Origin: Escherichia coli
GTDB taxonomy: Bacteria > Pseudomonadota > Gammaproteobacteria > Enterobacterales > Enterobacteriaceae
NCBI RefSeq assembly: GCF_003334785.1
Contig: NZ_QOWV01000057.1
DNA: 2,355 bases
Direction: 5' to 3' (one strand)
Every line of letters starts with the position of its first letter. The stretch's first letter is position 1. Positions 1 through 2,350 of the stretch are shown piece by piece. The notes below the pieces were generated by a model. It was not told the origin of the DNA, searched no databases, and saw nothing but the letters and a program-made list of their open reading frames with translations. The translations under genes and the position numbers were made by a program.

Positions 1-19
1 CGTTATATCCGAAGCCCCC

Positions 20-412
20 GTGGTAAAAAAACGTCCCCGGCGGCCCAACTTCCCTTATGAGTTTAAAATCGCCTTAGTGGAGCAGTCACTGCAGCCCGGA
101 GCCTGTGTGGCGCAGATCGCCCGGGAAAACGGAATCAACGATAACCTGCTCTTCAACTGGCGCCATCAATACCGGAAAGGTGGCCTGCTGCCTTCCGGAA
201 AAAATATGCCGGCACTGCTTCCCGTGACGTTAACGCCGGAGCCGGATAATAAAATCCCGGCCCCCGCACAGGAACCAGAGCAGATAAATACACCGTCCGA
301 CAGTCTGTGTTGTGAGCTGGTTCTGCCGGCCGGAACTCTCAGGCTTAAAGGTAAACTGACGCCGGCGTTATTACAGACACTTATCCGCGAAATAAAAGGG
401 AGCAGCCACTGA
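20..412 (+). CDS. tnpA: IS66-family accessory protein TnpA (orf1), predicted helix-turn-helix DNA-binding protein
   Basis: 130-aa ORF from GTG at 20 to TGA at 410-412. The N-terminus (EFKIALVEQSLQPGACVAQIARENGINDNLLFNWRHQYRKG) fits the HTH pattern of IS66 orf1 and related transposase N-terminal domains. A Pro/Glu-rich linker follows, then a C-terminal segment (ELVLPAGTLRLKGKLTPALLQTLIREI) resembling the conserved orf1 C-terminus. The reading frame is open all the way to position 2, so the true start could lie upstream of the window, and no clear Shine-Dalgarno precedes the GTG. Confidence 0.85.
   Translation: MVKKRPRRPNFPYEFKIALVEQSLQPGACVAQIARENGINDNLLFNWRHQYRKGGLLPSGKNMPALLPVTLTPEPDNKIPAPAQEPEQINTPSDSLCCELVLPAGTLRLKGKLTPALLQTLIREIKGSSH
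396..401 (+). promoter_or_regulatory. Shine-Dalgarno-like AGGGAG for tnpB, embedded in the 3' end of tnpA
   Basis: AGGGAG at 396-401, 10 nt upstream of the tnpB ATG at 412-414. Confidence 0.5.
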
Positions 413-759
413 TGATATCTCTCCCTGCAGGTTCGCGTATCTGGCTGGTTGCAGGTATCACCGATATGCGAAATGGCTTTAACGGCCTGGCATCAAAAGT
501 TCAGAACGTCCTGAAGGATGACCCGTTCTCCGGACACCTGTTCATCTTCCGCGGACGCCGGGGTGACCAGATAAAAGTGTTGTGGGCTGACAGTGACGGA
601 CTGTGCCTCTTCACCAAACGCCTGGAGCGGGGCCGCTTCGTCTGGCCAGTCACCCGTGACGGCAAGGTGCACCTTACTCCGGCTCAGTTATCCATGCTTC
701 TTGAAGGTATCAACTGGAAGCACCCGAAACGAACGGAACGCGCTGGAATCCGCATATAA
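412..759 (+). CDS. tnpB: IS66-family accessory protein TnpB (orf2); unrelated to the IS200/IS605 TnpB nuclease
   Basis: 115-aa ORF, ATG 412-414 to TAA 757-759. The sequence (RIWLVAGITDMRNGFNGLASKVQNVL...PFSGHLFIFRGRRGDQIKVLWADSDGLCLFTKRLERGRFVWP) is characteristic of IS66 orf2 as I recall it from enterobacterial IS66 elements. The start overlaps the tnpA stop (ATGA), as is typical for the family. Confidence 0.92.
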   Translation: MISLPAGSRIWLVAGITDMRNGFNGLASKVQNVLKDDPFSGHLFIFRGRRGDQIKVLWADSDGLCLFTKRLERGRFVWPVTRDGKVHLTPAQLSMLLEGINWKHPKRTERAGIRI

Positions 760-778: not shown

Positions 779-2350
779 ATGGACACCTCACTTGCTCATG
801 AGAACGCCCGCCTGCGGGCACTGTTGCAGACGCAACAGGACACCATCCGCCAGATGGCTGAATACAACCGCCTGCTCTCACAGCGGGTGGCGGCTTATGC
901 TTCCGAAATCAACCGGCTGAAGGCGCTGGTTGCGAAACTGCAACGTATGCAGTTCGGTAAAAGCTCAGAAAAACTTCGTGCAAAAACCGAACGGCAGATA
1001 CAGGAAGCACAGGAGCGAATCAGCGCACTTCAGGAAGAAATGGCGGAAACGCTGGGTGAGCAATATGACCCGGTACTGCCATCCGCCCTGCGCCAGTCTT
1101 CAGCCCGTAAACCGTTACCGGCCTCACTTCCCCGTGAAACCCGGGTTATCCGGCCGGAAGAGGAATGCTGTCCTGCCTGTGGTGGTGAACTCAGTTCTCT
1201 GGGATGTGATGTGTCAGAGCAACTGGAGCTTATCAGCAGCGCCTTTAAGGTTATCGAAACACAACGTCCGAAACAGGCCTGTTGCCGGTGCGACCATATC
1301 GTGCAGGCACCAGTACCTTCAAAACCCATTGCACGCAGTTATGCCGGAGCGGGGCTTCTGGCCCATGTTGTCACCGGGAAATATGCAGACCATCTGCCGT
1401 TATACCGCCAGTCAGAAATATACCGTCGTCAGGGAGTGGAGCTGAGCCGTGCCACACTGGGGCGCTGGACAGGTGCTGTTGCTGAACTGCTGGAGCCGCT
1501 GTATGACGTCCTGCGCCAGTATGTGCTGATGCCCGGTAAAGTCCATGCTGATGATATCCCCGTCCCGGTCCAGGAGCCGGGCAGCGGTAAAACCCGGACA
1601 GCCCGGCTGTGGGTCTACGTCCGTGATGACCGTAACGCCGGTTCACAGATGCCCCCGGCGGTCTGGTTCGCGTACAGTCCGGACCGGAAAGGTATCCATC
1701 CACAAAATCACCTGGCCGGTTACAGCGGTGTGCTTCAGGCCGATGCTTACGGTGGTTACCGGGCGTTATACGAATCCGGCAGAATAACGGAAGCCGCGTG
1801 TATGGCTCATGCCCGGAGAAAAATCCACGATGTGCATGCAAGAGCGCCCACCTACATCACCACGGAAGCCCTGCAGCGTATCGGTGAACTGTATGCCATC
1901 GAGGCAGAGGTCCGGGGCTGTTCAGCAGAACAGCGTCTGGCGGCAAGAAAAGCCAGAGCCGCGCCACTGATGCAGTCACTGTATGACTGGATACAGCAAC
2001 AGATGAAAACACTGTCGCGTCACTCAGATACGGCAAAAGCGTTCGCATACCTGCTGAAACAGTGGGATGCACTGAACGTGTACTGCAGTAATGGCTGGGT
2101 GGAAATCGACAACAACATCGCAGAGAACGCCTTACGGGGAGTGGCCGTAGGCCGGAAAAACTGGATGTTCGCGGGTTCCGACAGCGGTGGTGAACATGCG
2201 GCGGTGTTGTACTCGCTGATCGGCACATGCCGTCTGAACAATGTGGAGCCAGAAAAGTGGCTGCGTTACGTCATTGAACATATCCAGGACTGGCCGGCAA
2301 ACCGGGTACGCGATCTGTTGCCCTGGAAAGTTGATCTGAGCTCTCAGTAA
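779..2350 (+). CDS. tnpC: IS66-family DDE transposase TnpC (orf3)
   Basis: 523-aa ORF, ATG 779 to TAA 2348-2350. It has an N-terminal heptad-rich coiled-coil region with the IS66-typical FGKSSEKL motif (nt 953-976). A CxxC...CxxC zinc-finger-like pair follows (CPAC at 1169-1180, CRC at 1283-1291). Candidate catalytic residues are HADD (D at 1550-1555), QADAYGGY (D at 1742-1744) and NNIAEN (E at 2123-2125). Length and domain order match IS66 transposases. Confidence 0.95.

Follow-up and report, generated by a model that had tools for sequence, protein, structure and literature searches.

The segment at nt 209-412 of the 2,355-nt stretch of Escherichia coli DNA analyzed here (the window) is the tail, i.e., the C-terminal third, of TnpA, an accessory protein of the IS66-family insertion sequence ISCro1. 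In the window, TnpA is built from a helix-turn-helix (HTH) domain, a variable stretch, a short motif with conserved Pro and Val residues (the PV motif), a spacer and a conserved C-terminal mini-domain (the C block), and this conservation pattern recurred across the IS66 family, with the tail being exclusive to IS66 TnpA among the best 120 of 749 profile matches. The explanation that we consider the best one, and to which we give a probability of about one in two, combines this anatomy with a role of the tail as an assembly device. The HTH_Tnp_1 domain would bind the DNA of the element, while the mini-domain and the PV motif would be the sites contacting another protein and would be held by a flexible tether (the spacer), the exact length of which would be unimportant. 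As the partner, a second TnpA molecule (dimerization) or the TnpC transposase would be favored ahead of TnpB.

The window was 100% identical to copies of ISCro1 annotated by RefSeq in E. coli, and matches to it were detected in 2,906 of 5,426 complete E. coli genomes, at a total of 13,545 places on both chromosomes and plasmids. Three ORFs are present on one strand (20..412, 412..759 and 779..2350) in the order tnpA-tnpB-tnpC, with the gene for the DDE IS66 transposase at the 3' end. The RefSeq annotation was concordant with this order and names the tnpC product ‘IS66-like element ISCro1 family transposase’. Further, the NCBIfam models NF038385, NF033819 and NF033517 each scored above their curated cutoffs in the window. 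In an annotated copy of the element, L001 (NZ_CP023853.1), imperfect terminal inverted repeats of 22 nt, which start with GTAA, were located at positions 1182-1203 and 3859-3880; both repeats thus lie just beyond the ends of the window. Since an annotated RefSeq protein of a curated family is reproduced here exactly, we counted the object as already known.

Some ISCro1 copies in E. coli (hits H1-H5) were matched in two separate parts, with an element of the IS3/IS600 family annotated beneath, and nested insertion is the apparent cause of these splits. The sites also bear the annotation ‘AL1L pseudoknot’, a feature that is presumably part of the inserted IS3-family element.

The 5' end of the window falls within tnpA. 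The gene of the annotated copy comprises 678 nt (L001:1235-1912), with the first nucleotide of the window corresponding to position 1501 of L001, and the RefSeq protein (WP_001339397.1) consists of 225 aa vs. 130 aa for ORF 20..412. The tnpA frame remains open as far as the 5' border of the window, and Val96, an internal residue, is encoded by the GTG at nt 20. Because annotated tnpA begins 266 nt upstream of the window, where its ATG is located, the ORF start at nt 20 is an artefact that the ORF tool generated at the border of the window. The window, which displays the C-terminal 136 of the 225 residues, showed no difference from WP_001339397.1; the known IS66 TnpA/orf1 (NF038385 / NF047595; WP_001339397.1) has the same sequence, HTH_Tnp_1 domain, tail and position overlapping tnpB. 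The 130 aa encoded in the window reached 186.9 bits with NF038385 (cutoff 150), covering profile positions 80-189 of 190. This model of 190 positions stops at Gly111 of the ORF (profile position 189), and therefore the conserved C-terminal helix (nt 362-400) lies outside the curated model.

Conservation was analyzed in two independent samples of IS66 TnpA proteins. Sample 1 was an alignment of 54 proteins, made up of representatives of clusters at 50% identity, which came from an exhaustive phmmer search with 2,458 hits at E<=0.001, together with members of the ISCro1 subgroup. Sample 2 comprised 82 non-redundant TnpA proteins out of 459 loci obtained by scanning viral and genome collections, where the search included a TnpB-motif anchor independent of TnpA. 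The conservation profiles of both samples agreed, with the HTH, the PV motif and the C block alternating with two variable stretches in the entropy profile of each. In addition, the complete TnpA protein of 225 aa was modeled by AlphaFold2 using 86 aligned homologs. The features of the window are as follows (entropies in bits for sample 1 / sample 2; aa numbers refer to ORF 20..412 unless full-length residues are stated):

2..412, + strand: 3' part of tnpA (residues 90-225 of 225 of the full-length protein); the window equals ISCro1, CDS L001:1235-1912, NF038385
38..211, + strand: HTH_Tnp_1 (PF01527) DNA-binding domain, ORF aa 7-64; Pfam E=1e-14
nt 41-175: HTH segment used for conservation, ORF aa 8-52; mean column entropy 1.47 / 1.90
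176..214, + strand: first variable segment KGGLLPSGKNMPA, from the HTH to the PV motif, ORF aa 53-65; entropy 3.06 / 3.18
215..232, + strand: conserved motif LLPVTL, ORF aa 66-71; entropy 1.32 / 1.52
233..310, + strand: Pro/Ala/Ser/Thr/Glu-rich spacer TPEPDNKIPAPAQEPEQINTPSDSLC, ORF aa 72-97; entropy 3.12 / 3.06
311..397, + strand: C-terminal block, predicted beta-hairpin plus alpha-helix, ORF aa 98-126; entropy 2.02 / 2.34
396..414, + strand: tnpA/tnpB junction, with AAGGGAG at nt 396-402, the TGA at 410-412 and the tnpB ATG at 412-414
412..759, + strand: tnpB, IS66 accessory protein, 115 aa; NCBIfam NF033819, 128.9 bits (cutoff 50), RefSeq tnpB
779..2350, + strand: tnpC, IS66-family DDE transposase, 523 aa; NCBIfam NF033517, 477.9 bits (cutoff 180)

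The HTH domain had been placed at about nt 62-181 by the original prediction, which was approximately right. The Pfam match is somewhat wider than this, and the helices predicted by AlphaFold occupy nt 56-88, 107-127 and 140-175 (full-length residues 108-118, 125-131 and 136-147) with pLDDT values of 82-96. The length of the HTH core varied by no more than 1 aa across the IS66 TnpA samples. As a separate observation, the HTH region of TnpA matched two large proteins in 6 and 8 separate stretches (P0182, 679 aa, and P0206, 547 aa, respectively), which appear to carry tandem HTH_Tnp_1-like repeats.

The view of TnpA as a two-module protein could not be maintained, as the window edge removes a 95-aa N-terminal region with another HTH and the full-length protein has at least three modules. 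Residues 1-95 (L001:1235-1519, outside the window) contain a helical HTH-like domain at residues 16-75, modeled with pLDDT values of 83-96. With regard to Pfam, this part gave only weak HTH matches (HTH_23, E=0.11); by tblastn, residues 11-82 matched annotated istA genes of the IS21 family with 36-46% identity over 55-66 residues (E 2e-6 to 5e-4). The N-terminal 95 residues hold a second helix-turn-helix, related to the N-termini of IS21 IstA. The matching residues 11-82 lie outside the window and outside nt 209-412, and the IS21-like HTH is fused to an IS66 TnpA in this protein, in contrast to IstA, where it is fused to a DDE domain. The extension distinguishes ISCro1-type TnpA from most IS66 TnpA proteins; in an unbiased genome sample, it was present in 2 of 78 distinct TnpA proteins, both from Pantoea stewartii. 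The AlphaFold2 model of the full-length protein showed three confident modules and low confidence at residues 79-92 and about 150-190. Its overall pTM was 0.39, and therefore no fixed arrangement between the TnpA modules is suggested.

Within the tail, the peptide previously described as the linker, PALLPVTLTPEPDNKIPAPAQEPEQINTPS, is indeed encoded at nt 209-298 in the frame of ORF 20..412. Its characterization as Pro/Glu-rich was justified for Pro (8 of 30 residues, or 27% vs. 7% in the rest of the protein) but hardly for Glu, which accounts for 3 of 30. Taken by itself, this sequence has a Pro cluster within chance expectation, since 11% of shuffles of TnpA yielded a window of 30 aa with at least 8 Pro (p about 0.11). 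Across the family, the spacer contained 17-18% P (vs. 8.5% overall), 16-19% A and 10-13% S, and P+A+S added up to 46-47% vs. about 25% overall in both family samples, a composition that points to a real bias at the family level.

Alignment with the IS66 orf1 proteins divided the proposed linker into two parts. Its variable spacer part (nt 233-310) behaved as expected of a linker, whereas the first eight residues (nt 209-232) did not, as they hold the conserved PV motif at nt 215-232. The family pattern of this motif is [FL]-[LVI]-P-V-x-[VLI], with P found in 94% / 91% and V in 94% / 85% of the sequences of samples 1 and 2, respectively. Residues L66, L67, P68, V69 and L71 make up the stretch of TnpA that is most conserved after the HTH, and LLPVTL is invariant within the ISCro1 subgroup. 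The first variable segment upstream of the motif had a pLDDT block mean of about 60, and the distance from the conserved W-R to the PV motif ranged from 9 to 27 aa in the samples.

The length of the spacer was 14-36 aa in the family (median 23, and 26 here), with many indels, vs. changes of at most 1 aa in the C block or the core of the HTH; the claim that it is the linker whose length varies between IS66 relatives was thereby borne out. This was also evident among ISCro1-type proteins sharing 57-90% identity, in which LLPV and the C block hardly varied, in contrast to a spacer with indels of 1-9 residues. With respect to the flexibility attributed to this region, and taking pLDDT as a proxy for disorder, values in the spacer were 48-51, falling below 50 at full-length residues 178-185, and block means over residues 151-190 were 48-62 (55-66 in the fusion model described below). 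We conclude that nt 233-310 encode the genuine linker, which is probably disordered according to the models. At one locus, L430 (minus strand, 5' of the tnpB at 889), a divergent TnpA without an HMM match has kept the architecture. Its motif is degenerate (RFAELVI) and its spacer comprises only about 10 residues; the range of tolerated spacer lengths is therefore wider than in the samples.

The C-terminal peptide LCCELVLPAGTLRLKGKLTPALLQTLIREIKG was likewise present where it had been reported, being encoded in frame with ORF 20..412 at nt 305-400. Two strands were predicted at nt 305-325 and 332-352 (full-length residues 191-197 and 200-206), followed by a helix at nt 362-400 (210-222), with pLDDT values of 86-90 for the C block in the full-length model. 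Conserved hydrophobic residues alternate in the strands and follow an i/i+3-4 spacing in the helix, a pattern that fits a small beta-beta-alpha core. On its own, a beta-beta-alpha unit of 29 residues might be only marginally stable. The length of the C block was fixed across the family (24-26 aa). In sample 1, G111 was found in 96%, L118 in 91% and the I125 column (mostly L) in 80% of the sequences, compared with 60%, 83% and 85%, respectively, in the more divergent sample 2. The predicted conservation of this block among IS66 orf1 proteins was therefore confirmed, as it is kept across proteins of only 20-50% identity, and the distant NCBIfam model NF047595 matched it as well.

The tail alone matched the C-terminal parts of both NCBIfam models of IS66 TnpA, i.e., NF038385 and the distant, ISRel24-type NF047595. 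A search of 5.8 billion proteins with a tail profile retrieved 749 proteins, and the best 120 of these were all short fragments or PF01527 proteins (100-132 aa); neither a different architecture nor a TnpA-TnpB fusion carrying the tail was among them. Because both family models match and other architectures are absent from these best 120 matches, the tail appears to be a signature of IS66 TnpA and of nothing else. At E<=0.001, Pfam gave no match for the query tail or for any of 63 diverse tails. The best result of a profile search of PDB sequences with the tail had E=0.33, and Foldseek comparison of both models with the PDB gave generic HTH matches or noise, with a best E=0.3 otherwise. Searching the PDB with the tail sequence itself likewise gave nothing significant, and neither sequence nor structure comparison linked the tail to a known interaction domain. 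A likeness to the beta2-beta3-alpha2 part of an HMA copper chaperone (E about 1) was dismissed, as it gave no evidence of homology. No functional study of the IS66 TnpA tail was found in the literature searched.

Many proteins of 55-113 aa consisting of the tail only and lacking a Pfam domain were also observed (within P0263-P0382). Those with a named source came mostly from Bradyrhizobium, and many others stemmed from metagenomes. Decayed copies or genes called from an internal start are the probable origin, although an independently expressed tail is conceivable.

The HTH_Tnp_1 fold is common to TnpA and the OrfA proteins of the IS3 family (IS911 OrfA, IS2 InsA), and NF006928 (IS2 repressor TnpA) as well as NF033516 (IS3 transposase) matched ORF aa 13-66. 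In IS3-family OrfA (IS911), a leucine zipper C-terminal to HTH_Tnp_1 mediates protein-protein contacts. By analogy only, TnpA and IS3 OrfA may have a common logic, in which a small protein binds DNA and makes protein contacts through a C-terminal module. The modules themselves differ, being a coiled coil in IS3 OrfA vs. a PV motif, disordered spacer and beta-hairpin-helix in TnpA. A leucine-zipper module of the IS3 OrfA type was rejected for the tail, where a beta-hairpin and a helix of 13 residues are predicted and a long helix is absent. Also unlike IS3, ISCro1 has tnpB and tnpC as separate genes, without a programmed frameshift fusion to the transposase.

We also considered the PV motif as a peptide of the QL[SD]LF type binding the beta-sliding clamp, and discarded this option because [FL][LVI]PVx[VLI] has no conserved Gln. 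Published clamp motifs of IS66 elements are located in TnpB and TnpC, not in TnpA (PMC3971601), and those in IS66 TnpB have been described as strong (Gomez et al. 2014, PMC3971601). In the window, TnpB residues 92-97 (nt 685-702) read QLSMLL, which resembles the clamp-binding consensus; QLSMLL or QLAMLL occurred in 88 of 128 TnpA/TnpB pairs and some variant of the pattern in 120 of them. In the fusion model, QLSMLL was predicted as a helix (fusion residues 197-204) and not as a free peptide.

At the 3' end of tnpA, the Shine-Dalgarno-like AAGGGAG lies within the last codons of the gene, and its TGA stop has one A in common with the tnpB ATG. The last five or so tnpA codons probably double as the ribosome-binding site of a translationally coupled tnpB. 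Of 128 distinct tnpA-tnpB pairs taken from other loci, 125 displayed a stop/start overlap, which was of the ATGA type in 112 and of the 1-nt type seen here in 13. Among tnpB loci without a tnpA HMM match, the few interior ones inspected had frameshifted or divergent tnpA remnants and the remaining ones were mostly at contig ends. This arrangement raises the question of whether conservation of the C block reflects a nucleotide constraint for tnpB expression (a ribosome-binding site or a coupling hairpin) rather than protein function. The position of AAGGGAG would agree with such a constraint, as would an inverted repeat (nt 383-402 / 421-440, 20 nt, 70% complementary) that can pair with it in a fold of -18.1 kcal/mol. 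However, the ribosome-binding site concerns only the last five or so codons vs. a block of 29 residues, the hairpin was no better than shuffles (z = -1.14), and 81 diverse tnpA/tnpB junctions displayed no excess structure (mean z +0.24). Further, the block is kept as an amino-acid pattern in proteins that are 20-30% identical and come from hosts of very different G+C. A junction RNA hairpin was thus rejected as the cause of C-terminal conservation, and since neither the window nor the family as a whole gave a signal, an RNA constraint would apply to the last few residues at most; we judge the nucleotide reading to be very improbable.

Since the stop of tnpA overlaps the start of tnpB in nearly all pairs, TnpB was the first candidate partner of the tail. 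A specific docking of the C block on TnpB, with tnpA-tnpB coupling serving co-translational 1:1 assembly, would be in keeping with this overlap, and the C-terminus of TnpA would leave the ribosome just ahead of TnpB synthesis. In a docking test, TnpA residues 144-225 were joined to TnpB by a (G4S)5 linker and modeled by AlphaFold with 71 naturally paired rows (the query and 70 natural pairs drawn from the 128 distinct TnpA/TnpB pairs of the 459 loci). Although TnpB folded with pLDDT values of 83-92, the confidence of the PV motif and the C block was not raised: the hairpin-helix, at 80-90, was as confident as before, and the PV motif, at 63-66, did not form a strand. The model, with a pTM of 0.46, thus gave no sign of docking of the tail on TnpB, a result that counts as a weak negative given the shallow alignment and output without PAE or coordinates. 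In addition, natural TnpA-TnpB fusions were absent from the best 120 of the 749 tail-profile matches, and we consider specific docking on TnpB to be rather unlikely.

Somewhat less unlikely, but still doubtful, is a tail that forms one domain, in which the PV motif would provide a strand pairing intrachain with the C-terminal hairpin and helix, and the spacer would be a surface loop. In its favor, the hydrophobic pattern of the motif is beta-like and its conservation equals that of the C block, and every family member, including the divergent L430 variant, has a conserved hydrophobic element on either side of the spacer. Against it, two AlphaFold runs (86 and 71 diverse rows) left the motif unpaired and without a strand, alone or beside TnpB (pLDDT 62-66), but modeled the hairpin and helix confidently.

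With regard to the preferred reading, that of the tail as an assembly device, a second TnpA or TnpC is favored as the partner because the in silico test gave TnpB no support. The C block had originally been called a possible interaction module; this role is still putative, and TnpB, the one partner modeled in silico, gave no indication of docking. In a more specific form, which we put forward tentatively and regard as possible at well below even odds, the PV motif and the beta-hairpin-helix would be a two-point docking device by which DNA-bound TnpA recruits TnpC or bridges the ends of the element by dimerizing. Overall, the observation from which this analysis started was partly confirmed, and its interpretation was partly supported.

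IS66-family elements are very abundant, and the roles of TnpA and TnpB are undefined in the literature searched. The architecture of the TnpA tail is already implicit in the curated family models, and the refined map presented here is a small descriptive addition, which brings no new biology otherwise and will not surprise a specialist. By distinguishing the HTH, the PV motif, a dispensable-looking spacer and a conserved mini-domain, it provides a guide to deletion and mutagenesis of TnpA. For the transposition of IS679, tnpA, tnpB and tnpC are all reportedly necessary. If two-point docking by the TnpA tail were true, it would account for the requirement of IS66 elements for three proteins and would represent a mode of recruitment undescribed in other IS families.
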